Shown here: one piece after another, positions 1 through 19,417 of the stretch
Position numbering within the stretch: the stretch's first letter is position 1
Layout: each line of letters begins with the position of its first letter
Made by a program: the position numbers and the translations under genes
The notes under the pieces: model-generated
Databases searched by the model: none
The model's input: the letters and a program-made list of their open reading frames with translations, nothing else
Told to the model about the DNA's origin: nothing
From: a virus
Reading direction: 5' to 3' (one strand)
Length of the DNA: 19,417 bases
Virus genome (UHGV): UHGV-1532611

Positions 1-91
1 AAATTGAGCCACAGGACGTCGATAAAGGACGGTTTGGGGCGTCATATCGGGAGCTGCGGACCACTTAATCGCAACTTCCTTAGAAGTAACC

Positions 92-2938: not shown

Positions 2939-4843
2939 ATGCTAAAACTTAAGCGCGATTACACAGTTCAGGGTATTGATTCTGTTGATGGTGTTTTTGA
3001 AATTGCGTTCAGTTCTGAAACTCCTGTTGAAAGACAGATTCAGGATGAATACGGTCAAAACATTACTGTTAATGAAATTCTCGTTCATGACGGCTCACAT
3101 AACGCTGACTTGACCCGAATTAATAACGGTGCTGCTTTGCTGTTTAACCATGATTTTGATAAACACTTGGGAATCGTTATTCCTGATTCTGTTCGAATCG
3201 ATGAAGACAAAATAGGACGAGCAAAAGTCCAATTCAGTCAACACGGTGAATTAGCTAAAGAAATCGGTGCAAAAGTTCAAGAAGGAACAATTAGTAAAAT
3301 CTCTTTCGGATATGACATTAATGAATATCACTTAGAAGGCGACAATCTTATTGTTACGAAATGGGCACCATATGAAATTTCTTTCGTCACTGTTCCTGCT
3401 GACGATAAAGTCGGTTTGGGAAGACTACTAAATACAGATACAACAAACAAACTTAACAAAGGTACTCGAATGAAACGTATTGATGAAATGACTAAAGATG
3501 AACTGGCAGAAATGACTATCGATGAAATTGAAATGCTGTCCGATGAAGATCGTGCAAAGCGTGAAGAAATTCTGGAAGAAGTAGTCGTTGAAAATGAAAA
3601 CGCTGGTGATTCTGCTGTTGAAAAAACTGATGACGCTCCTGCTGCTGTTCCTGCTGGTGACGAACTGACAGAAGAAGAACGCGAAGAAGAAGCGGAAGAA
3701 ATTCTTGAAATCGCACAACGCTACAAAGTAGCACAGAAAGACGTTGCAAGCGCTATCGCTAAAGGCATGACCGCACGTCAATTCAAACGCTCTATTAAAC
3801 CTAATAAATCTGCAACGGTGATTCGCAACATGACTAAAGATACTAAACAAACTCTGGAAAATAAATTCGACCTTGGCGATGCTGTTCGCTCTATGATGAA
3901 TGGTAAAGCTGTTCGCGGTGCTGCTGCTGAATATACTCAAGAAATGTCCCGTAAGCGTCTGATGCGCGGTGCTAACGTTTCTCAAGGTATCTATATGCCA
4001 GTTAGTGCTCTGCAAGGCAAACGCGCTATTAACACTGTATCAACTGTTTCCGCAGTACAAGAAACTGTTCAGCGTTATGATTCATTCGTTGAAATGCTGT
4101 TGAAAGACACTGTTGCTGATAAGCTGGGAGTTAACTTCCTGACTGGTCTGACTACTCCGATTTCTGTTCCTAAGCAGACAAAATCAAGTGTTGATGCATT
4201 CGGTTTCGTTGATGAAAACGGTGAATCTCCAGAAGGCGAAAGCAAATTCGAAAACATTCAGTTTATGCCTAAGACATTTACTGGTGGTAACCCGATTTCT
4301 CGTCAAGCTCTGTTGACTCTGCCTAATCTGGGTGCGTTCATTTCTGACCATATCGTGAATTTCTCACGCGCTAAACTGGAAGGTCTGATGTTCGGTTCTA
4401 TTACCGACGCAAAAGCTCCTCAGTCTATCGTTGCTCAGTTAGTAGCAAAACAGATGGGAATGACCTACAAAGAATTCGTTGTTGAAGCTGCTAAAGCTAA
4501 AGGCGACGGCGTAGCAATGGACAAGTTCAAATATTTGATGGCTGCTGCTCTTGAAGGTGATTTGAAAACCACTCTGCGTGACGCTGGTGTTGCTGGTTAT
4601 ATCATCGACGACCTGAACAAACTGGGCGGACATGATGTTATCGGTTCCGGTCTTGTTAAAGAAGGTCAGGTTATCTCTGGTGACTTCTCTGCTGTAACCG
4701 TAGCTGAGTGGGAAGGTCTTGCTCTTGACCTAGACGACACAACTTACCGTAACAAAGGCGCTATCGTTCCTCGCGTTTGGGCTGATATCGATTGGAAAGT
4801 TTGTGCTGATGATCGTCTGTTCCTGCACGAAAAACAAGCCTAA
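2939..4843 (+). CDS. Prohead protease - scaffold (delta-like) - major capsid protein fusion
   Basis: 634-aa continuous ORF. Residues 1-170 have the HK97-type prohead protease (S78/U35) pattern (NHDFDKHLG, ISFGYD, EISFVTVPADD). Residues about 175-290 are acidic and helical (EEEREEEAEEILE), like a scaffold or delta domain. The C-terminal ~350 aa are of major-capsid size and composition. A terminator follows the gene. Confidence 0.8.
   Translation: MLKLKRDYTVQGIDSVDGVFEIAFSSETPVERQIQDEYGQNITVNEILVHDGSHNADLTRINNGAALLFNHDFDKHLGIVIPDSVRIDEDKIGRAKVQFSQHGELAKEIGAKVQEGTISKISFGYDINEYHLEGDNLIVTKWAPYEISFVTVPADDKVGLGRLLNTDTTNKLNKGTRMKRIDEMTKDELAEMTIDEIEMLSDEDRAKREEILEEVVVENENAGDSAVEKTDDAPAAVPAGDELTEEEREEEAEEILEIAQRYKVAQKDVASAIAKGMTARQFKRSIKPNKSATVIRNMTKDTKQTLENKFDLGDAVRSMMNGKAVRGAAAEYTQEMSRKRLMRGANVSQGIYMPVSALQGKRAINTVSTVSAVQETVQRYDSFVEMLLKDTVADKLGVNFLTGLTTPISVPKQTKSSVDAFGFVDENGESPEGESKFENIQFMPKTFTGGNPISRQALLTLPNLGAFISDHIVNFSRAKLEGLMFGSITDAKAPQSIVAQLVAKQMGMTYKEFVVEAAKAKGDGVAMDKFKYLMAAALEGDLKTTLRDAGVAGYIIDDLNKLGGHDVIGSGLVKEGQVISGDFSAVTVAEWEGLALDLDDTTYRNKGAIVPRVWADIDWKVCADDRLFLHEKQA
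3427..3436 (+). promoter_or_regulatory. Internal copy of actaaataca, 33 nt upstream of the in-frame ATG at 3470
   Basis: Identical 10-mer to 2881-2890; followed by an SD-like aaaggta (3457-3463) and ATG 3470 (Met178 of the fusion ORF). Confidence 0.3.
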
Positions 4844-9832: not shown

Positions 9833-10309
9833 ATGGCAGACAAATTTGATATTTTTGCTGGCTCTTACGTCAGTGTGTTCTATAACTCAGAAATTGCAAA
9901 CACCGATCTGAATTCAGAAAAGTTTGTTGAAATTCCTGAAACTGGTGCATTCCCTTCTACGGGTATTGAACGCGAAGTTATTACAGCTCCTAACTTCTCT
10001 CACAAATACTCCCGTAAACTGGTTGGTCGTGGCTCTGTTCCTGATATCGACTTGACCGTTAACTATATTCCAGAAAGCGTTCATGATGTTCTGATTAAGC
10101 TTGCGGAAGATGGTAAACGTGGTCAGTTTAAAATCGTTTATTGGATTGATGCTACTAAAAAACTGGGTGTTGCAAAAGTTTATAACGGCTTCTTGTCAAG
10201 CGCTGTTCATAATGGCGGTGAATCAGAAGTTCAAGGTCTGACAATGACACTGAGTGTTGATGGTGGTCCTGTTGTTTCTGGTGTTGTTGATTTGACATCA
10301 AGTGATTAA
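9833..10309 (+). CDS. Tail-tube-fold protein: second gpV-like paralog, or a distal tail (M/Dit-like) ring protein
   Basis: 158 aa. Aligns by eye with the N-domain of the 5650-6675 product, and its C-terminal pattern (KIVYWID...VYNGFLSSAV) resembles the gpV N-domain as remembered. Preceded by a terminator and promoter-like motif, followed by a terminator. Confidence 0.6.
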   Translation: MADKFDIFAGSYVSVFYNSEIANTDLNSEKFVEIPETGAFPSTGIEREVITAPNFSHKYSRKLVGRGSVPDIDLTVNYIPESVHDVLIKLAEDGKRGQFKIVYWIDATKKLGVAKVYNGFLSSAVHNGGESEVQGLTMTLSVDGGPVVSGVVDLTSSD

Positions 10310-10313
10310 TTAA

Positions 10314-10337
10314 AAAGACTCCGCAAGGGGTCTTTTT
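10314..10337 (+). terminator. Intrinsic terminator after the second tail-tube paralog
   Basis: agactcc-gcaa-ggggtct (7-bp stem with one G-U pair, GNRA loop) followed by seven T. Confidence 0.7.
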
Positions 10338-10341
10338 TTGG

Positions 10342-10351
10342 CTCTAAATAA
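10342..10351 (+). promoter_or_regulatory. Promoter-like motif ctaaataaag upstream of the 10367 gene
   Basis: Exact 10-mer shared with 14477-14486 and 15967-15976; sits just after the 10314-10337 terminator. Confidence 0.35.
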
Positions 10352-10366
10352 AGTCAGAGGTGAAAC

Positions 10367-10783
10367 ATGTTTAAATTTCAAGCTGACTTATCAAAATTAC
10401 TTAACCGCTATATCAATCAGCAACACGTTTTCGGTCAAAACGACTGTAATATCCTTGTTGCTGAATATATCGACCTTGTTTGTGCTACTGAATACACAGA
10501 CAAATTAAAAGACAAATACACGAGTATTCCTGAAGGTCTCAAGATTTGCAAAGAGCTAACTGGTTTTAATAACGTTCTCGAAGCGTGTGAAACGCATCTT
10601 GAGAAATCAGAAACTATAGAAACAGGCTCGGTTATCTTAATTAAGAAAAAACATAAAAACCGTGTCTATTACGTTGCATCTATCGTTTTTAATAATAGAG
10701 CATTAGTTGAACATGAAAATAAATATCAACTGATAAACGTCAACGATTTTAATTTTGAATTAATTTTTAACAGGAGAAAATAA
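10367..10783 (+). CDS. NlpC/P60-like tail tip protein (gpK C-terminal domain homolog, no MPN/JAB domain)
   Basis: 138 aa. HVFGQNDCNILVAEY matches the Cys motif of the gpK NlpC/P60 domain (HGVTDCYTLF) and GSVILIKKKHKNRVYYVASIVFNNRALVEH matches GDVLL...NHAAIY.GDGELLHH. Stop overlaps the start of the J-like gene (TAATG). Confidence 0.5.
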   Translation: MFKFQADLSKLLNRYINQQHVFGQNDCNILVAEYIDLVCATEYTDKLKDKYTSIPEGLKICKELTGFNNVLEACETHLEKSETIETGSVILIKKKHKNRVYYVASIVFNNRALVEHENKYQLINVNDFNFELIFNRRK

Positions 10784-13700
10784 TGGCTATTGTAGCTATT
10801 GGTGCAATTATCGCAGGTGCTTCCGCGGCTGCTGCTGCTTACGCTGCGGGTGCTGCTCTTGCTTTGGCAATTGGTATTGGTGTCGCTGTTGCTGCTGTTT
10901 CTGCTTTGATGTCAACTCAGATGGCGCAGAACGTTCCCCGATTTAACAGCACAGACACAGCAACGACATTAGGAACAACGTCAGATCCATCAAGTGTTAT
11001 TCCTATTATCTATGGTGAACAGCGTACAGGTACGATTAACGTTTGGAAAGCTGTTGGCGTTGATACGACATATTTGGTTCAGATCTTTGCAATCTGTGAA
11101 GGTGAAGTTGATAGCTTCAAAAACCTTTATATGGATAATCAGAAAATCTTACTTGATGGCGTTTATAAAGACGGTGTTCTTCCGAAAGGTTCAATCGCTG
11201 CTGAATATCAGCAATATGTTGAAGTTGAATTCTCAACTGGTAAGCCATACGGTCACGTTTTTACTCTTGCTCAGAAATATCTAGGAAATTCAGATGCTGG
11301 CTGGCCTGATTCTGCTACTGGTAATAACATCGCTGCTTGTTGTGTTGTTATGCGCAAACGTAACTCAGACCTTCAAAACCAAGCTGATATCCTGCAACCT
11401 AACAGTCAAGTATCTGTTGACGTTAGAGGACGTTTGATTACAGATCTGAACACAGGAGAACGCGTTTCCTCGAACAACGGTCCGAGTCAGATTGTTGATT
11501 ATCTAACAAATGATAGATACGGTCTTGGAATTCAGATTGATAAAATCGACCTTGATAGTTTTAAAGAAGCTGCTCGATATGCAAAACTGAACAGTTTATT
11601 TTCTGATGGTGCAACTGACCCGAACGGTTCATTCAAAGAAAACTTAACTCAGCTTGCAGGTGCATTTAACGGTATTATCACAGAGACTTTCGGTAAAGTA
11701 ACATGCAGAATCGATGGACCTGATGTTGTTCAATATGACTTCAACGAAGATAATATTAACGCTGGTACTGTTAGCTTAAACGATGGCGGTTCTGAGAATT
11801 ATTACAATACTCTGAACGTGAAATATCAAGATCCGTCGATTGACTATTCTGACCAAGTTCTGCGTTATCCGTCTGACGTAACAAATGATGGAACAATCGC
11901 GAAAGATAAACGTATTATCGCTAAAGATATCAGTTACAGATTCGTGAAATCAAAATCTCAGTTGGATAAAATTGCTTCAATCGAACGTAACAAATCTCTG
12001 TTAAAGCAAGTTATTAGTTTTTCAACTGCTGATGCTTATACCGCACAGGTCTGGGATGTTATCAGAGTTAATTTCTCTGAACTGGAACTTGTGAATTCAT
12101 TATGGCGTATTACTAATATCGATCGTTCGATGAATAAAGGTGCTGCTGGTATCGTTACTATTACTGCTTCTGAATATATCGAAGAAGTTTATACCAATCT
12201 TGACTACGCGAAAGACCCTGATAACACAGGAAGCAACATTCCTAATAAATCTGTTCTGATTGCTCCTAAGAATCTGACAGTTAAAGCAGTTGCTGAAACA
12301 GCTTTAGGAAGAACTCTGAAAGTTCAATGGACGTCTGAACCTGATTATAATCGCGCAGGTTATTATATTCAGTATAGTCTTGCTGGTAAGAACTCTTGGA
12401 TTCAAGCAGGTTTCACATCAGGCGATTATTTCTTGATTATGAGTCTTGACCCTAATCAGAAATTTGATATTCGTGTTTGTGCTTCTGGTGTTGTGTATCG
12501 TTCAGATTGGGTTTATGTCAATAACGTTAACCCTGAGGTTATGTATAACTTACCAGTCGTTACAGGACTGCACCTAGTGAACGCAGTTGAAAATCAATAC
12601 ACCACTAACAAGACTCAATTTGAATTCGCCTGGGACGACCAGAGCGCACAGAAATTCTATGTTGACGACACGTTACAGACATTCGGTGAAGTTTTTCAAT
12701 ATTACGAAATCAAAATTGAAGGTCAGCGTCCTGTAATTTACAAGACTAAAGACTTAGGTTTTGTATATGACTTTAATATGAACTTGGGTAATGGTCTGAG
12801 TCGTGAATTGAAAGTTTCTGTTACTGCATACGGTCACGCTGGTATGAAGTCAGATCCTGCTGTTATTACTGTTAAGAACAATCAAGCTCCTGCTATTCAA
12901 GGTTTCACAGCTTCGAATGGTCCTGGAATGCTGATGTGCTCTTGGAATGACCCACGCGATAATAAGCCTGAAGTTCCTGACTTCAAAGGCACAATCGTTC
13001 ATATTGCGAAAGACCAGAGTTTTAATGAAATTGTTCACGTTTATTCAAGTTCAAGTCCGTTCTTAGATAATTTTCCATTAGAAGATGGTCAATTCTATGT
13101 TCGTTCAGCTTGGTATGACGTATTCGGACAAGACCAGATTACTTGGTCAGAATCGAAGTTTATCGATATGAAATGGGATATTCCGTGGACTGACGATATG
13201 AAAGAACAGTTAAACGATTTGCTTGATTTGGATAAACGTGTTGATGGTGCTATCGATGAAGCATTAGACCTCGCTAACAAATACACTGATACGAAAGTTA
13301 CAGCATCCGAGCAAAAAGTTACTACTGAATTAAATCAGACTATCACGACGAAAAACACCGAACTTCATACTCAGATTACTAATGAAACTAATGGCGCTAT
13401 CAATCAGGCTATCAGTATTCAAGAATCTAACTTTGATGGAAAACTTAACTCGGCTATTACGAAAGTTGAAAAAACTCAAGCTGATGATAGACAAGCAACC
13501 GCAAGTTCAATTAATCAATTGAAAGCTGAAACAAACACAGCTATTGCAACAGTTAGTCAAGAATCAAAAGCAAGCGTTGACGACTTAACAGGAACGATTA
13601 ATAGCAAATGGGCAGTTCAGACTAATGCCGACGGTGTTGTTGCTGGTATCAGTATGCTGGCTAATAAGAATCCTGACGGTTCAAAACAGTCTAGTATTGT

Positions 13701-14472
13701 TTTTAACGCTGATAAAATCGCTATAACGAATAACAATACTCCTGCGGGTGCTGTTGCTCCGTTTATGGTCGCTGATAACAGAGTTTATATGGATTCTGCA
13801 ATGATTCGTAATGCTTCTATCGGTTCAGCACAGATTGCAGATGCTTCTATTAACAACGCTAAGATTCAAAACGGTGCTATTAACAACGCGAAGATTGAAA
13901 ACGGTGCGATTACTACTGCGAAAATTGGTAATGCTCAGATCGGTTCAGCACAGATTGCTTATGAAATATCTTCTGATAACTGGTTCCCTTCCGGTGGTAC
14001 TCAAGGTTGGACAATCAGAAAAGACGGTTGGGCTTCTTTCCAAAACGTTAATATCAGAGGTAACATTCAAGCAGATTCTGGTTATTTCGCAGGTGAAATC
14101 AGAGGCGGTTCAGGTTATTTCACAGGAACTGTATACGCTGACAGAATTGAAGGTGACGTTATCAAAATGGGTCATATAGATCCGTGGACAACAGTTCATA
14201 TTCCTGCTGTTAACTGGAACAGAGTAATTTCTATTCCAAACCTTTCGATTTCAGGCAGAACTTATTCCGGTGGTGCTTGGGGCTACGGAACTGCATGGAT
14301 TAATATGTCGAACGGTCAAGAAATCGTAAGAACAGTTACCAGTGCAATGAGTGGTTCAAACGGTGGTACAGGCATTATCTATGCGGGACAAGCTGTTGAT
14401 TTGAGTTACGGTGCTGACTTGAATCATGCGACCGCAGCAAGAGCAGTTTACTTTATCAGTAAACAACAATAA
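10783..14472 (+). CDS. Tail tip / host specificity protein (gpJ-like) with gpI-like N-terminal segment
   Basis: 1229 aa. The N-terminal Gly/Ala-rich hydrophobic stretch followed by VIPIIYGEQRTGTINV resembles the gpI C-terminus (VLPVLYGEMRVGSRVV). IVDYLTNDRYGLG matches the gpJ LTHPRYGMG region. Two FN3-like segments, a helical region and NAKIxNGAI-type repeats are present, and WAVQTNADGVVAGISM...FNADKIAI resembles gpJ [20 protein letters not shown]...VAANRIAF. The C-terminal ~170 aa are the likely receptor-binding domain. Confidence 0.85.
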   Translation: MAIVAIGAIIAGASAAAAAYAAGAALALAIGIGVAVAAVSALMSTQMAQNVPRFNSTDTATTLGTTSDPSSVIPIIYGEQRTGTINVWKAVGVDTTYLVQIFAICEGEVDSFKNLYMDNQKILLDGVYKDGVLPKGSIAAEYQQYVEVEFSTGKPYGHVFTLAQKYLGNSDAGWPDSATGNNIAACCVVMRKRNSDLQNQADILQPNSQVSVDVRGRLITDLNTGERVSSNNGPSQIVDYLTNDRYGLGIQIDKIDLDSFKEAARYAKLNSLFSDGATDPNGSFKENLTQLAGAFNGIITETFGKVTCRIDGPDVVQYDFNEDNINAGTVSLNDGGSENYYNTLNVKYQDPSIDYSDQVLRYPSDVTNDGTIAKDKRIIAKDISYRFVKSKSQLDKIASIERNKSLLKQVISFSTADAYTAQVWDVIRVNFSELELVNSLWRITNIDRSMNKGAAGIVTITASEYIEEVYTNLDYAKDPDNTGSNIPNKSVLIAPKNLTVKAVAETALGRTLKVQWTSEPDYNRAGYYIQYSLAGKNSWIQAGFTSGDYFLIMSLDPNQKFDIRVCASGVVYRSDWVYVNNVNPEVMYNLPVVTGLHLVNAVENQYTTNKTQFEFAWDDQSAQKFYVDDTLQTFGEVFQYYEIKIEGQRPVIYKTKDLGFVYDFNMNLGNGLSRELKVSVTAYGHAGMKSDPAVITVKNNQAPAIQGFTASNGPGMLMCSWNDPRDNKPEVPDFKGTIVHIAKDQSFNEIVHVYSSSSPFLDNFPLEDGQFYVRSAWYDVFGQDQITWSESKFIDMKWDIPWTDDMKEQLNDLLDLDKRVDGAIDEALDLANKYTDTKVTASEQKVTTELNQTITTKNTELHTQITNETNGAINQAISIQESNFDGKLNSAITKVEKTQADDRQATASSINQLKAETNTAIATVSQESKASVDDLTGTINSKWAVQTNADGVVAGISMLANKNPDGSKQSSIVFNADKIAITNNNTPAGAVAPFMVADNRVYMDSAMIRNASIGSAQIADASINNAKIQNGAINNAKIENGAITTAKIGNAQIGSAQIAYEISSDNWFPSGGTQGWTIRKDGWASFQNVNIRGNIQADSGYFAGEIRGGSGYFTGTVYADRIEGDVIKMGHIDPWTTVHIPAVNWNRVISIPNLSISGRTYSGGAWGYGTAWINMSNGQEIVRTVTSAMSGSNGGTGIIYAGQAVDLSYGADLNHATAARAVYFISKQQ

Positions 14473-14476
14473 CGTT

Positions 14477-14486
14477 CTAAATAAAG
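14477..14486 (+). promoter_or_regulatory. Promoter-like motif ctaaataaag upstream of the 14518 gene
   Basis: Exact 10-mer, 4 nt after the J-like stop and 31 nt before ATG 14518. Confidence 0.35.
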
Positions 14487-14517
14487 ACAAGGAGGTCTTT
14501 TAAAAAGGAGATTCAAG

Positions 14518-14802
14518 ATGGTCGATATAGCACTGATCATTTCCATCTTGGGTGCTCTAGGAGGTTTCTTGGCTTGGGTTTATGCCGAAATTAAATCAAA
14601 CAATGAAAAACGAATTGACCTTGAGAAACGTTTCTCAGACATCGAAAAAAGCATAGCCGTTAATGACGCAAAAGATGCTTCGCTTATAAGCGATATAACA
14701 CGACAACAGGATGAATTTCGAGAGGTCAAATCTGATTTGAAGAATTTAGAAGGAAGAACAGCAAAGCTAGATATCGACCTAGCAGTTCTAAGAGGAAAAT
14801 GA
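14518..14802 (+). CDS. Small membrane-anchored coiled-coil protein (one N-terminal TM helix); function unknown
   Basis: 94 aa with two SD-like elements upstream (aaggagg 14489-14495, aaggag 14505-14510). IALIISILGALGGFLAWVYA is a predicted TM helix, followed by a charged helical region. Stop overlaps the next start (ATGA). No cysteine, so not a lipoprotein. Confidence 0.6.
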   Translation: MVDIALIISILGALGGFLAWVYAEIKSNNEKRIDLEKRFSDIEKSIAVNDAKDASLISDITRQQDEFREVKSDLKNLEGRTAKLDIDLAVLRGK

Positions 14803-15275
14803 AAAGAAAAGAGATTCCGATTTATAAGCAAGAACTCTTTCAAAAGCAAAAAGGTCTTTGTGCTTTAACTGGCATAAAGATTCATGAAGTTAATAAAGCC
14901 CATCTTGACCATGACCATATATTAACAGGCTCTAACGCAGGCAGATGCAGAGGATTATTAATCGCTCAAGCAAACGTCCTAGAGGGCAGAATAAAACATC
15001 AGTTTAAACGTTCGGGTCTCGATGGGAAAATTGACTACATCGAGTTTTTGAAGAATCTTGTTCAGTATCTTGAAAAAGACTACTCAGACAATCCTACGCA
15101 TCCACAACTTATTCCTGATTTAAAGAAGGCGTTCTCTCGAAAAAATCTTTCTGAGATGAAAGCTATTACAGGTTCAAACCTTAAAACGAAAAAGGAGCTT
15201 GAAAAAGTCTACTCAAACCAAATAAAGGTGAAATATGAAAATGAAATATCTCCAAGCATTGGCAAAACACGCTAA
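14799..15275 (+). CDS. T4 endonuclease VII (gp49)-like junction-resolving / HNH-fold nuclease
   Basis: 158 aa (T4 endo VII is 157 aa). HLDHDH, GRCRGLL, N..EG and KHQFKRSGL.G..DYIEFL.NL..YL..DYS.N..HP are collinear with T4 endo VII as remembered. The catalytic Asp/His/His/Asn/Glu equivalents are present. Confidence 0.8.
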   Translation: MKRKEIPIYKQELFQKQKGLCALTGIKIHEVNKAHLDHDHILTGSNAGRCRGLLIAQANVLEGRIKHQFKRSGLDGKIDYIEFLKNLVQYLEKDYSDNPTHPQLIPDLKKAFSRKNLSEMKAITGSNLKTKKELEKVYSNQIKVKYENEISPSIGKTR

Positions 15276-15432
15276 AGATTATCTTATTGTTCTATTTCTC
15301 GTTACTATAACTTATAACACTGTTGCTGTTCCTGTTCTGCAAGCTTTCGATATTAAAGCACCTAAAATGATTCTTATCAGCGAAGAACAGATAAAAACAT
15401 TTGGGACGCTTCTGATGTCAGGAGTGAACTAA
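15235..15432 (+). CDS. Small single-pass membrane protein, hypothetical
   Basis: 65 aa with SD aaggtga (15222-15228) before ATG 15235. Predicted TM helix YLIVLFLVTITYNTVAVPVL. Overlaps the 3' end of the endo VII-like gene by 41 nt in another frame, and its stop overlaps the next start (TAATG), so the call is tentative. Confidence 0.4.
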   Translation: MKMKYLQALAKHAKDYLIVLFLVTITYNTVAVPVLQAFDIKAPKMILISEEQIKTFGTLLMSGVN

Positions 15433-15974
15433 TGGCAAAAGCAAAAGATGTTATGAAAGACCTTGAAAAATGGCGAATCAAAGAATCTGACGTGTTCAGT
15501 AAGAAAGTAACCAAAGCGTCTAAACTCGCTTCTGTTGAGTTGCAAAGAAAAATCAACAGACGAGTCGATGGACCAGTTAATTTCACTAAGAACGCAGTAG
15601 GTTTCAGTTTCAGATACGATCAGAACGGGTCACGAAATAGAATATTCATCAAAGACAAGCAGGCTGATTATCTTGCTCCGTTAATTGATGATAACAAAGG
15701 AATTAACAAGTTTGTTCCAACTGGTGTAAGAGGTTCAAAGAACAAATTCGGTAACATTCCTAACTTGAAATCAAGAAATAATCTTGAAGCTGTCAAGCAA
15801 AAAAAAGATGGCGTAACTCGAACGATCCTCATTAAAACTAACGTTAAAAAGCAAGACCGTCGTTTAATTGCTGTATTCAAGAAAAATCAACACAGAAGAA
15901 AAACTCTGGGTTCATGGAATCAAATCTCTGACGATATATTCAAAACCGTTAAGCGTGTTGCGGGTACTAAATAA
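15432..15974 (+). CDS. Lys/Arg-rich basic protein, hypothetical
   Basis: 180 aa, strongly basic, no cysteine. SD ggagtga (15421-15427). No recognisable family by eye. Confidence 0.6.
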   Translation: MAKAKDVMKDLEKWRIKESDVFSKKVTKASKLASVELQRKINRRVDGPVNFTKNAVGFSFRYDQNGSRNRIFIKDKQADYLAPLIDDNKGINKFVPTGVRGSKNKFGNIPNLKSRNNLEAVKQKKDGVTRTILIKTNVKKQDRRLIAVFKKNQHRRKTLGSWNQISDDIFKTVKRVAGTK

Positions 15975-15976
15975 AG
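15967..15976 (+). promoter_or_regulatory. Promoter-like motif ctaaataaag upstream of the 15992 gene
   Basis: Exact 10-mer overlapping the stop codon of the 180-aa gene, 15 nt before ATG 15992. Confidence 0.35.
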
Positions 15977-15991
15977 TCAAAAGGAGAACAA

Positions 15992-16309
15992 ATGAACATT
16001 CACGATTTTGATACTTACAGATTAGACGAACTTGCCGACATCTACGTTAACGAGATTAATCCCGAGTCAATGACTGTTCCTTACGGTTGCGAACACATCA
16101 AAGATAAGCGAATTAAAAAATATCTGTTCAACGATAAGAACGTTTTTATTGTTTCAACACAGAAGAAAAAACCTAATTGTCATTTCAAATTAGGACAGAC
16201 AGTTCGACTGCAAGGTCCATTTTTTGAGACCGAAGCGAAGAACTTAGGAATGATTGAATATATCCACAAAGGTTTCAGAATGTACGGATATTTCTTTCAA
16301 TGGAAATAA
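15992..16309 (+). CDS. Hypothetical small protein (moron-like unit)
   Basis: 105 aa with a strong SD (aaaaggaga, 15977-15985). A promoter-like motif lies upstream (15967-15976) and a terminator hairpin immediately downstream (16311-16336). Contains two Cys and several His. Confidence 0.65.
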   Translation: MNIHDFDTYRLDELADIYVNEINPESMTVPYGCEHIKDKRIKKYLFNDKNVFIVSTQKKKPNCHFKLGQTVRLQGPFFETEAKNLGMIEYIHKGFRMYGYFFQWK

Positions 16310-16310
16310 C

Positions 16311-16336
16311 AAAAGGGAGCCTCGCGCTCCCTTTTT
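16311..16336 (+). terminator. Intrinsic terminator after the 105-aa gene
   Basis: gggagc-ctcgc-gctccc stem-loop flanked by aaaa upstream and ttttt downstream. Confidence 0.7.
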
Positions 16337-16348
16337 CATAAATAAAAG
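16337..16348 (+). promoter_or_regulatory. Promoter-like motif cataaataaaag upstream of the G-like chaperone gene
   Basis: Directly after the 16311-16336 terminator, 24 nt before ATG 16373. Confidence 0.3.
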
Positions 16349-16372
16349 AAAACTCAACAAAGGGAAACAAAA

Positions 16373-16681
16373 ATGAATTTCGATGAAATGTTAGCAAGTC
16401 TTTCGCCTTCTCGCGAACCAGTAGAAATCAACGGCTTTAAATTCTATGCTCGTCCTATGACCGTATCTGAATTCGGTGAATTCTATTTCAAAAATGAAAA
16501 CACAGAAGAACGTAACGACCGAATGATTCTGAATTGTATTCAACACGAAGACGGAACTCCTGTTTTTAAAGAAATCGCTCAAGTTCAGAAACTTTATACC
16601 ACTGTTCGTTCAACTCTTGCTAGTGCTGTTTCTACTGCCAGTATTCTCAGTAAGAAATCAGACGTTCTGGAAAAGAACTAA
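16373..16681 (+). CDS. Tail assembly chaperone (gpG-like)
   Basis: 102 aa immediately upstream of the tape measure gene. EINGFKFYARPMTVSEF resembles gpG FEHNGVTVTLSELSALQ. Its 3' end overlaps an open -1 frame (the T-like frame). Confidence 0.6.
   Translation: MNFDEMLASLSPSREPVEINGFKFYARPMTVSEFGEFYFKNENTEERNDRMILNCIQHEDGTPVFKEIAQVQKLYTTVRSTLASAVSTASILSKKSDVLEKN
16669..16675 (+). other. Candidate -1 ribosomal frameshift site (G GAA AAG) for a G-T fusion
   Basis: GGAAAAG lies in the G-frame 2 codons before the G stop, inside the G/T overlap. It differs by one base from the lambda G-T slippery site G GGA AAG; the A-site AAG to AAA slip is canonical. Confidence 0.35.
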
Positions 16682-16716
16682 GACAGAACTGGGCTAAATC
16701 ATTTCAGTATAGAACA

Positions 16717-17079
16717 ATGCTACGTCGCGGATTATCTAACGATGAAATTCAACAGATGTCCGTGATGATGTATTACGAACTATGGTTTTTCGACTCGTTT
16801 ATTGAACCTCAAGGTCCTGTCTATAACGATTTCTATCAAGCACGTTTGGTCCACACTATCGAAGCTAATAATCCTAATCTTACAAAAGAATATAGGAAAA
16901 AGCTCAACATGAAAGATCACCTGCTTATTAAAGATTCTGTGTTTAAGTCTCAAGAGGAAATCGAAAAAGAGAAAGAGCAACAGGAGCTTAAACGCAAGAA
17001 AGCTGTTGAATCGATGTTCGACCCTGCTCTGTTAGACAAAGTTAGACTGAAACAACAAAAAAAGGTGAATAATGGCTAA
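16717..17079 (+). CDS. Tail assembly chaperone T-like segment, probably made as a G-T fusion by -1 frameshift
   Basis: The frame is open from 16624 and overlaps the 3' end of the G-like ORF in the -1 frame. ATG 16717 has no SD. Stop overlaps the tape measure start. Coordinates are those of the ATG-initiated ORF; the fusion product would begin at 16373. Confidence 0.5.
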   Translation: MLRRGLSNDEIQQMSVMMYYELWFFDSFIEPQGPVYNDFYQARLVHTIEANNPNLTKEYRKKLNMKDHLLIKDSVFKSQEEIEKEKEQQELKRKKAVESMFDPALLDKVRLKQQKKVNNG

Positions 17080-19417
17080 ATCACGTTATGACGTCGAGAT
17101 TAACGGAGATAACAAAGGCCTATCAATTTCTATTGACAAGTCCATGAAGAAACTGAATGAACTCGATTCAGTAGCTAATGGACTTTTTAGTAATATGACA
17201 GGACCGTTGAATAATCTCAACAACGGAATCTCAGGTATTGCAGGAATGTCCAAGGGTATGCAAGCTCTGGGGATTGCAGGAATGGCAGCAGGTGCAGGTG
17301 TAGCTGTTCTTAATACCGCGTTAGAAAAAACGAGAGAACTCAATCAACTCTCTACATCAACTGGTCTTTCAGTTGAATATCTGCAACAACTTAAAAATGA
17401 ATTTCGCGAAACAGGTATGGAGATTGACCGTTTCGGAGATTTAAACAAAGACACATTAGATAAACTTGGCGATTCATTCAGAGAAGGTCATGGCGGTATT
17501 GCAGACGACCTCAAAGAATGGGGTATTGGTCTTGAACAGTACACACAATACGTCAACGATGCCCAAGGCGGTATTAAAGCGCTTGTTCAGACTTATTATG
17601 ACCTGAAAGCTGCTGGTGCAAGTCAAGCTGAAATCGTGAACGGAATGGAGTCAATGGCTTCTGATGCTTCACATTTGATTTCAACTCTTGAAAAATACGG
17701 TTCAACTCAAGACGCATTAAACGCTATTAACAATCGTTCTGTTGATATCACAAACGAAACAGCAAAAGAATATAAAGAATTCGACGAAAACATGAAAACG
17801 TTAACCGTCAATCTGGATAATCTAACTGTTAACGTTATGAGTCCGTTAGTTAAGAAAATGAACGACCTGTTCGAAATTGCTAATAAAGATTGGACAGCAA
17901 GTAACTTTTTAGACTTCATGGGAACATTAAGCACGTTGCGTCCTGATGCTGCTCTTTCTGATTGGGCTGCCGAAGCGACTGTTAACAAAATGGGCGAATG
18001 GATGCCTAATGCGGGTTTTGCTAAACGTAGAAAAGCAATTGCAGATGAAGAAAAGTTTCAGAAAGATATTGCCGCAGCAAGAATCAAAGCTGATGAAAAT
18101 CTTCGTTTACAGCAAGCAAATGCTAAAACTGCCGCAGATCTGAAAAGAAAAAAAGATGCATTAGCTGCCGAAGACGCTAAGAAAGAAGCTGAAAAAGCTA
18201 AACGCGAAGCTGACAAAATAGCAAGAGAAGCTAAAGCTGCTTATGATAAGATGATGCAAGAGCGTCAGACAGCGTTACAGAATCTTTCCAGTCTTGATGC
18301 TGCAATTCTCAGTCAAGAAGGCAGAACTATTTCTAGTCAAGTCAGTAAAGTTAGAGAAGCTGTTGAAACAATCGACGAACTTGAAAAGAAAGGAATAATC
18401 AGCGCTACACAGGCAAATCAACGTCGTAAAATGCTTTTTGAGAATTCAAACAAAGAATTCAAACAAACTCTTATGGCAAGTCCTGAAGAAATCGGTGCTA
18501 TTACGTCGAGTCTTGAAATCGTATATCAACAACAACTTGAACAACTCGAAGCTAAGAAAGCCCAATCGCTTATCGGTCAGAAAGAATATAATTCTCAGTT
18601 AGAAGCTATTCAGAAAGACCATCAGCAACGTCTTGAAGCAATTAAAGCGACTGCTGGCGATGGTAATATGTCTAATCTTAAAAATCTTGATGCTATCGGT
18701 TTTGCAACTGATGAAGAAAAAATGGCTATTCAACAGAAAATGTTGGAAGAACAATTTCAGAAGATGCAAGAACAGAACCAAAAGCTATATGACGGACAAT
18801 TGATTTCTTATGAAGATTATCTCAAACAGAAACAGCGTCTTGAGCAAGCTTATGCGGTTAAATCGAAAGCAATTACTTTCACTGAGATTCAGACAAAACT
18901 CCAGATGTATAACGGTTTTGCTTCTGGTATGGGTGCAGTTATAGCCGGTATTTCTGGTGAAAACTCTAAAGCTGCTCAAGCAATGTTTGCAGTTGAAAAA
19001 GGAACAGCAATCGCAAGCGGTATGTTAAACGCTTATGAATCAGCAACTGCTTCAATGGCAAAATATCCTGGTCCTTTAGGTTACGCTCTGGCTGCTTCAA
19101 GTTATGCAAGAGTTATCGGACAAGTCATGCAGATGAAATCAGTGAATCTTACTGGTATGGCTCACGATGGTATTTCTAATGTTCCAAGAGAAGGGACATG
19201 GCTGCTTGATGGTGGCGAACGTGTCGTTGATGAAAGAACAAACGGCGACTTGAAAGACTTCTTAGATAATCAGAAAACAGGAGGCGAAACAAAAATCGAC
19301 GCAAGTATTCACGTTTCAGGGAATGTTACTGATCAGCGTTGGTTTGCTGAACAATTAAAACGTCAGCAACAGAACATCGCGGCTATTGTTCAAGACAGCA
19401 ACAGACGCAAGATGTAA
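17072..19417 (+). CDS. Tail tape measure protein
   Basis: 781 aa, largely helical and Ala/Gln/Lys/Glu-rich, with Gly/Ala-rich hydrophobic segments near both ends (GIAGMAAGAGVAVL; GMGAVIAGISG), directly after the G/T-like chaperone pair. Using the lambda rule of about 0.15 nm per residue this predicts a tail of roughly 115-120 nm. Confidence 0.8.
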   Translation: MAKSRYDVEINGDNKGLSISIDKSMKKLNELDSVANGLFSNMTGPLNNLNNGISGIAGMSKGMQALGIAGMAAGAGVAVLNTALEKTRELNQLSTSTGLSVEYLQQLKNEFRETGMEIDRFGDLNKDTLDKLGDSFREGHGGIADDLKEWGIGLEQYTQYVNDAQGGIKALVQTYYDLKAAGASQAEIVNGMESMASDASHLISTLEKYGSTQDALNAINNRSVDITNETAKEYKEFDENMKTLTVNLDNLTVNVMSPLVKKMNDLFEIANKDWTASNFLDFMGTLSTLRPDAALSDWAAEATVNKMGEWMPNAGFAKRRKAIADEEKFQKDIAAARIKADENLRLQQANAKTAADLKRKKDALAAEDAKKEAEKAKREADKIAREAKAAYDKMMQERQTALQNLSSLDAAILSQEGRTISSQVSKVREAVETIDELEKKGIISATQANQRRKMLFENSNKEFKQTLMASPEEIGAITSSLEIVYQQQLEQLEAKKAQSLIGQKEYNSQLEAIQKDHQQRLEAIKATAGDGNMSNLKNLDAIGFATDEEKMAIQQKMLEEQFQKMQEQNQKLYDGQLISYEDYLKQKQRLEQAYAVKSKAITFTEIQTKLQMYNGFASGMGAVIAGISGENSKAAQAMFAVEKGTAIASGMLNAYESATASMAKYPGPLGYALAASSYARVIGQVMQMKSVNLTGMAHDGISNVPREGTWLLDGGERVVDERTNGDLKDFLDNQKTGGETKIDASIHVSGNVTDQRWFAEQLKRQQQNIAAIVQDSNRRKM

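Follow-up and report, generated by a model that had tools for sequence, protein, structure and literature searches.

The tail assembly chaperones gpG and gpGT of phage lambda are produced through a programmed -1 frameshift at G_GGA_AAG (Levin 1993; Xu 2004; as reviewed in PMC5009743), with about one GT needed for every 30 G (PMC5009743). Because Escherichia coli decodes both AAA and AAG with a single tRNA-Lys, A_AAG is prone to shifting in this host (Atkins 2016, PMC5009743), where it is the most shift-prone -1 tetramer (Sharma 2014, PMC4066793). Sites of the form NNA_AAG include G_CGA_AAG of IS1222 and A_CGA_AAG of Bacillus subtilis cdd, and how efficiently they shift is governed by the wobble behaviour of the tRNA in the P site, a tRNA that contains inosine in the IS1222 case (PMC5009743). 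The A_AAA_AAG site of E. coli dnaX is flanked by an upstream Shine-Dalgarno (SD)-like element and a downstream stem-loop and reaches 50 to 80% shifting (PMC6787027). For actinophage tail assembly chaperones, PRFect has proposed non-canonical "twofour" and "fivetwo" motifs, and re-pairing of tRNA-Glu from GAA to GGA via G.U was offered there as an explanation for GGGGGAA (PMC10885494). Here we describe a locus of this kind in the virus genome UHGV-1532611, whose whole 19,417-nucleotide (nt) stretch is referred to as the window. A first-pass annotation of the window had proposed that a G-like and a T-like open reading frame (ORF) upstream of a tape measure gene are joined by a -1 frameshift. Our analysis supports this proposal through comparative conservation of A_AAG, a conserved linker, the lack of an SD sequence for T and protein family matches of G and of the T parts of relatives, and it makes it very probable that the two ORFs are joined at G_GAA_AAG and form the tail assembly chaperone pair of a siphovirus-type prophage of E. 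coli. The features concerned are as follows.

16373..16681, + strand: G-like tail assembly chaperone ORF of 102 amino acids (aa), the zero-frame product, with its stop TAA at 16679-16681
16651..16653, + strand: T-frame (-1) stop codon TAA, which bounds the stretch open to a productive shift on its 5' side, overlooked in the first-pass annotation
16654..16678, + strand: permitted shift interval of 25 nt, open in the -1 frame and ahead of the zero-frame stop
16669..16675, + strand: shift site G_GAA_AAG, read in the zero frame as ctG GAA AAG aac TAA
16675..17079, + strand: T part, -1 frame, with first codon GAA (16675-16677) and stop codon TAA (17077-17079)
16717..16719, + strand: earliest T-frame ATG, unconvincing as a start of its own
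17072..19417, + strand: tape measure protein gene, continuing past the end of the window (phrog_13674, E 1.1e-69; 799 aa in RefSeq)

The G ORF is preceded by an SD-like AAGGGA (anti-SD pairing energy -5.3 kcal/mol) and ends with the codons CTG GAA AAG AAC TAA. As the first-pass annotation had it, the ORF that begins at the first T-frame ATG (16717..17079) is shifted by -1 with respect to the frame of G, and the next gene, from 17072, encodes a tape measure protein by its phrog_13674 match. The overlap between the two frames had been drawn too long. The T frame was thought to be open from 16624 and to cover the last 19 codons of G; the translation of 16621-17079 reads '*CCFYCQYSQ*EIRRSGKELRQNW...', with a second in-frame TAA at 16651-16653, and the -1 frame is open only from 16654, leaving an overlap of 25 nt (8 sense codons). 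The heptamer GGAAAAG is present at 16669-16675 as proposed and falls inside the shortened interval too; the annotation was right about the site, including its one-base difference from that of lambda, and wrong only about the extent of the overlap. A -1 step at this site would produce the fusion join(16373..16675,16675..17079), a GT protein of 235 aa (101 + 134) whose predicted junction peptide after Asp-N digestion is DVLEKELRQNWAKSFQYRTMLRRGLSN.

Like lambda, the locus has two overlapping ORFs directly before the tape measure gene, with the second one shifted into the -1 frame and devoid of start signals of its own, a predicted slip on A_AAG a few codons ahead of the G stop and no evident stimulatory structure. 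The tape measure ATG (17072) overlaps the T stop by 8 nt, as in lambda, where T ends at 10549 and H starts at 10542, and T parts of some relatives match the Pfam family Phage_tail_T. It differs from lambda in the P-site half of the heptamer, which is GAA rather than GGA and permits only a near-cognate G.U re-pairing, in the sizes of G (102 aa vs. 140) and GT (235 aa vs. 279) and in its unusual tail gene order, with a J-like tip fibre gene upstream of G. As in IS1222 and cdd, the Lys slip on A_AAG follows a non-repetitive P-site codon; that codon is GAA here and GTA in relatives, as opposed to CGA, the search for a stimulator in the window was negative, and the locus serves phage assembly and does not encode a transposase. 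The tRNA-Lys slip from AAG to AAA and the host are those of dnaX, and relatives L068 and L081-L084 carry exactly A_AAA_AAG, whereas the window has neither of the dnaX stimulators and lacks the first AAA. The sequence GGAAAA also fits the two-then-four pattern of PRFect; the motifs proposed there were inferred from the annotation of high-GC actinophages, while the present evidence is phase-specific conservation in an enterobacterial prophage family. Of the features of the G/GT class (Xu, Hendrix and Duda 2004), the locus has the ORF pair before the tape measure gene, the -1 overlap without T start signals and conservation in diverged relatives. It is an unannotated member of this well-known class, distinct only in its non-canonical P-site half and in a motif that drifts around a fixed A_AAG.

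Within the window, the heptamer at 16669-16675 holds the sole in-frame A_AAG of the whole G ORF. Codon-by-codon inspection of 16654-16678 yielded no other slip site that permits re-pairing. In the other genes of the window, an in-frame A_AAG occurs at 23 of 5637 codons and is present in only 3.3% of windows of eight codons and 1.6% of those of four, and AAG makes up 20% of the Lys codons (AAA 323, AAG 79). Taken alone, the A_AAG of the window is a single occurrence and only suggestive when set against chance; its weight comes from the relatives.

Relatives were collected by searches with the G and T proteins and with alignments of the fused protein, which recovered 47 IMG/VR loci, one contig from a metagenome-assembled genome, 24 metagenome loci and one GenBank record (Escherichia phage DCP80). 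Besides the window, 71 loci had an intact T frame and a readable junction, representing 37 distinct 90-nt junctions. A zero-frame A_AAG leading into a long -1 ORF was present in 71/71 loci and 37/37 distinct junctions, and all 71 loci retained the short G ORF, the T ORF in the -1 frame and an A_AAG inside the permitted interval. This interval is only 13 nt long in 19 of the 37 distinct junctions and 7 nt long in L068 (junction GTT GAA AAA AAG TAA), where it holds no motif other than A_AAG; such narrow intervals pin the slip site to A_AAG. The heptamers of the 37 distinct junctions were GGTAAAG (19), GGAAAAG (6), AAAAAAG (5), AGAAAAG (4), AGTAAAG (2) and TTTAAAG (1), corresponding to four motif classes, N_GTA_AAG, N_GAA_AAG, A_AAA_AAG and T_TTA_AAG. 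The last two are canonical textbook heptamers and occur in distant relatives, T_TTA_AAG in DCP80 and A_AAA_AAG in the loci named above. The base before AAG was always A, whether the codon to which it belongs specifies Glu (GAA), Val (GTA), Leu (TTA) or Lys (AAA), and the Lys codon of the site was invariably AAG, the minority Lys codon. In one additional locus, L079, A_AAG is kept and the T frame is truncated.

Fusion proteins built by a -1 step after AAG were collinear through the junction in an alignment of the window with 13 relatives. The shift point lies ahead of a conserved T-frame Asn by five codons in the clade of the window, by four in the A_AAA_AAG members and by two in the GTA AAG clade and DCP80; the slip position thus drifts by up to three codons among relatives, and the alignment of the fused protein is undisturbed. 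Judged from these comparisons, it is the fusion that appears to be conserved, with the type and position of the motif drifting and A_AAG remaining fixed. The linker of 14 codons between the site and ATG 16717, which in the window encodes QNWAK and SFQYR, gave pairwise differences of 119/99/153 at the three T-frame codon positions and a mean aa identity of 0.50 in the T frame vs. 0.32 and 0.28 in the other frames. The linker of the GTA AAG clade displayed the same codon-position pattern. These values indicate that the T frame is the coding frame of the segment before ATG 16717.

Two of the relatives are unusual at this locus. In L003 / L013 (IMGVR_UViG_3300045988_134013, locus 3001-3324), codons 1-83 are 100% identical to the G of the window and are followed by unrelated sequence (ctgcgcggaatagtagatcactgaaaggg...), leaving G truncated; the break reflects either an insertion or rearrangement in the chaperone gene or a chimeric contig. 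The DCP80 record (L059, PQ671644.1, 13777-16877) contains a siphovirus-type G/T/tape-measure module with the canonical T_TTA_AAG, all of it annotated as "hypothetical" and with T started 23 codons past the slip site, in a 141-kb genome assigned to Gaprivervirus (T4-like); it is possible that the assembly is chimeric.

The G protein of the window matched phrog_344, "tail assembly chaperone", with an E value of 1.2e-6, and scored 19.7 bits against the Pfam family Phage_TAC_13 (PF16459), below the cutoff of 28.8. Among 14 diverse family members, 13 matched phrog_344 and 12 matched Phage_TAC_13 below threshold. In seven of the 14, the same T segment (about residues 142-214, aligned to model positions 14-72) matched Phage_tail_T (PF06223, the lambda gpT family), and in one of them, L021, the score of 27.3 bits exceeded the gathering score of 25.9. 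The T of the window is tentatively assigned to this family through its homology to the relatives with Phage_tail_T matches. A protein homologue search with the fused sequence gave no matches, a sequence profile search of the PDB returned only a chance-level match (E 0.16), a single-sequence AlphaFold model of G had a predicted local distance difference test (pLDDT) score of 55, too poor for fold comparison, and a DNA-level search of a phage collection with 15900-17500 gave only a weak tape-measure match.

According to the mechanism that we propose, most ribosomes would translate G and terminate at TAA 16679 to give the 102-aa chaperone, and a small fraction would slip back one base at G_GAA_AAG. 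The tRNA-Lys (mnm5s2UUU), which pairs weakly with AAG (16673-16675), would re-pair perfectly with the overlapping AAA (16672-16674), and tRNA-Glu in the P site would shift from GAA onto GGA, forming a G:C pair, a G.U pair in the middle and an A:U pair, as expected from the known E. coli anticodons. Mismatches in the P site are tolerated in vitro (Bock 2019, PMC6787027). Translation would then resume in the T frame at GAA 16675 and run to 17079, yielding the 235-aa G-T fusion. By analogy with lambda gpG/gpGT, the G part may coat the tape measure protein and the T part may recruit the tail tube protein, with a low shift frequency setting the G:GT ratio. The zero-frame phase of A_AAG and a host with a single tRNA-Lys, E. 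coli by virtue of the 100% identity of the window to strain MS 115-1, both agree with this mechanism. We prefer to describe the site as an A_AAG slip whose P-site half is near-cognate (GAA to GGA), and not as a near-canonical X_XXY_YYZ heptamer.

A variant of this explanation, in which the product is identical and the kinetics differ, is that a single tRNA slips with AAG in the P site while the next codon is slow to be read ("shifty stop" or hungry codon), in place of a two-tRNA slip at translocation. The P-site codons that precede AAG, GAA and GTA, re-pair poorly, in keeping with a single-tRNA slip. Moreover, a zero-frame stop directly follows AAG (A_AAG_TAA) in 23 of the 37 distinct junctions and comes one codon later in nine more, which hints that a P-site slip is helped by slow termination. 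The codon after AAG in the window is AAC, a common codon and no stop, so slow termination can be only a partial explanation; the stop is 4 to 11 codons away in L052, DCP80, L045, L081 and L083; and on dnaX in vitro the slip takes place at translocation after Lys has been decoded (PMC6787027). We therefore regard the single-tRNA route as possible and rather doubtful.

That T is instead made as a separate protein, without any frameshift, from ATG 16717 or the RefSeq start ATG 16765, whether initiated independently or through termination-reinitiation, seems to us unlikely. ATG 16717 is situated 35 nt past the G stop, RefSeq contains a stand-alone 104-aa ORF from 16765, and A_AAG without a stimulator is weak in reporters (PMC4066793). 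A search of 1.84 billion representative proteins found T homologues in only 15 clusters, all of them separate ORFs of 86-130 aa called from many different start residues, with no native in-frame fusion among the 15; the family is small and no fusion has been annotated by anyone. Neither ATG, however, has an SD sequence. ATG 16717, for which the first-pass annotation had already noted this, gave an anti-SD energy of +0.2 kcal/mol and ATG 16765 one of +0.1 kcal/mol, vs. -2.7 to -8.7 kcal/mol for the starts of the 15 other genes of the window. The ATG homologous to 16717 is missing in several lineages, being replaced by ATT or CTT in L014, L015, L016, L020 and DCP80, and the first T-frame ATG of the relatives comes anywhere from 5 to 78 codons past the slip site. 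In every locus the T frame ahead of the ATG is open and its peptide conserved, A_AAG is invariant, and a start at 16765 drops 30 conserved T-frame codons (16675-16764). ATG 16717 also falls inside a predicted hairpin (16716-16774; -21 kcal/mol, z about -5) that would, if it forms, occlude the supposed T start. The same hairpin, the only strong one predicted, was considered as a frameshift stimulator and set aside: its start is 41 nt downstream of the site, relatives of 87-92% identity, among them the 87%-identical EN-1077 prophage, have a weaker form with no compensating changes, and more distant ones lack it. It is probably incidental. Slippage of RNA polymerase on the A run, yielding an mRNA one A shorter in place of a ribosomal shift, is extremely improbable, since bacterial transcriptional slippage is known from roughly 8 to 9 homopolymer residues (PMC5009743) and the run, which reaches seven A in distant relatives (GAAAAAAAG), is only four A long in the window and three in the GTA AAG clade, and since the invariant is the codon phase of A_AAG, a property relevant to the re-pairing of tRNA but not to a slipping polymerase.

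Several observations weigh against a ribosomal -1 shift joining G and T at G_GAA_AAG. The heptamer of the window is not a canonical X_XXY_YYZ, its slippery half being A_AAG only; a canonical heptamer is a usual feature of the G/GT class and no strict requirement. The T of the window reached no Pfam or PHROG family, and a comparison of the family profile with lambda gpGT by hhalign, GT similarity being another point of difference from lambda, was not significant (E 0.2). A downstream stimulatory structure, an element raised in the first-pass annotation, was not found near the site when the window and 17 lineages were folded against shuffled sequences: the 42 nt after the site (+4 to +45) were unstructured, with z of +0.5 in the window and +0.08 to +1.9 in the 17 lineages. 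The window has no SD-like element upstream of the site (anti-SD -1.4 kcal/mol), and an Rfam search matched no frameshift element. In reporters, A_AAG without a stimulator shifts at ~0.15%, barely above background, and with a pseudoknot at 5.6% (Sharma 2014, PMC4066793); the stimulator needed there for percent-level efficiency in this class is missing from the window. Given that no stimulator is conserved and that A_AAG alone is near background in reporters, a low shift frequency is to be expected, in keeping with the small share of GT that lambda requires (PMC5009743). The efficiency in the window is probably low, as in lambda, and could be very low. Finally, the terminase gene of the prophage in MS 115-1 is split by an IS3-family element, and the slip site may no longer be used in that strain.

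An SD-like stimulator upstream of the site was likewise rejected for the family as a whole, nothing of the kind being conserved among the relatives. In the closest relatives, L011 / L012, AAGGA occurs at roughly the expected spacing, ~12 nt upstream of the heptamer (around 2770-2790), where the window has AAGAAA, and it is possible that this was an SD-like frameshift stimulator since lost in the window. Some GTA AAG members have GAGG adjacent to the site.

The spread of A_AAA_AAG, T_TTA_AAG, N_GTA_AAG and N_GAA_AAG over three positions within a 4-codon stretch allows a further, tentative suggestion, namely that the family is a natural allelic series in which A_AAG by itself, next to a P-site codon that is not slippery and unaided by an RNA stimulator, might suffice for a productive programmed shift. 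If this were so, the choice of P-site codon and, in most members, the adjacent stop would tune the G:GT ratio, and stimulator-free tetranucleotide shifting would be productive in phage genes, which the reporter data (about background) do not predict. The four natural motif variants at one site provide a compact test set in which P-site identity and the adjacent stop can be compared with efficiency in E. coli. Frameshift finders limited to X_XXY_YYZ heptamers will overlook chaperone shifts whose sole invariant is a phase-locked A_AAG. Overall, the results confirm and do not extend what is known of tail assembly; three consecutive "hypothetical" genes can now be named as tail assembly chaperone G, frameshift extension GT and tape measure protein.

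The window is 100% identical to positions 3149620-3169011 of the E. coli MS 115-1 chromosome (NZ_CP146665.1), a prophage adjoining ldtB. RefSeq names the MS 115-1 products G (WP_001008297.1), T (WP_000990408.1) and tape measure (WP_001140113.1) each "hypothetical protein", starts T at the later ATG (16765) and annotates no frameshift, and the same is true of a prophage of E. coli EN-1077 with 87% DNA identity to the window, in which the terminase gene is intact. In MS 115-1, the first ~90 bases of the window (1-90), which are 96-100% identical to many enterobacterial plasmids and chromosomes, are the end of the IS3-family element that splits the terminase large-subunit gene, and the MS 115-1 prophage is probably defective.

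The gene order around G and T is atypical. From 9833 to 19417, the window encodes a major-tail-like protein, a DUF6950 protein, a 1229-aa J-like tip fibre, endonuclease VII, a minor tail protein, G, T and the tape measure protein; the major-tail-like gene (9833-10309) lies apart from G/T. The G/T/tape measure genes form the extreme right end of the prophage, beside ldtB, and a baseplate-hub (DUF2163) gene lies at the left end on the opposite strand, a layout shared by the EN-1077 relative. A GC-rich hairpin (16311-16335; GGGAGC-CTCGC-GCTCCC) with A and T runs on either side separates the ORF at 15992-16309 from the G start; it resembles an intrinsic terminator acting in both directions, immediately ahead of the chaperone and tape-measure genes. 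A TIR-domain protein and a reverse transcriptase/endonuclease of the retron Ec67 family, both resembling anti-phage defence cargo, are encoded by the MS 115-1 prophage in the part that precedes the window (L060, 2309-6325). A 634-aa ORF of the window (2939-4843) is annotated as "HK97 family phage prohead protease" in one strain and as "phage major capsid protein" in another, and is probably a protease-capsid fusion gene.

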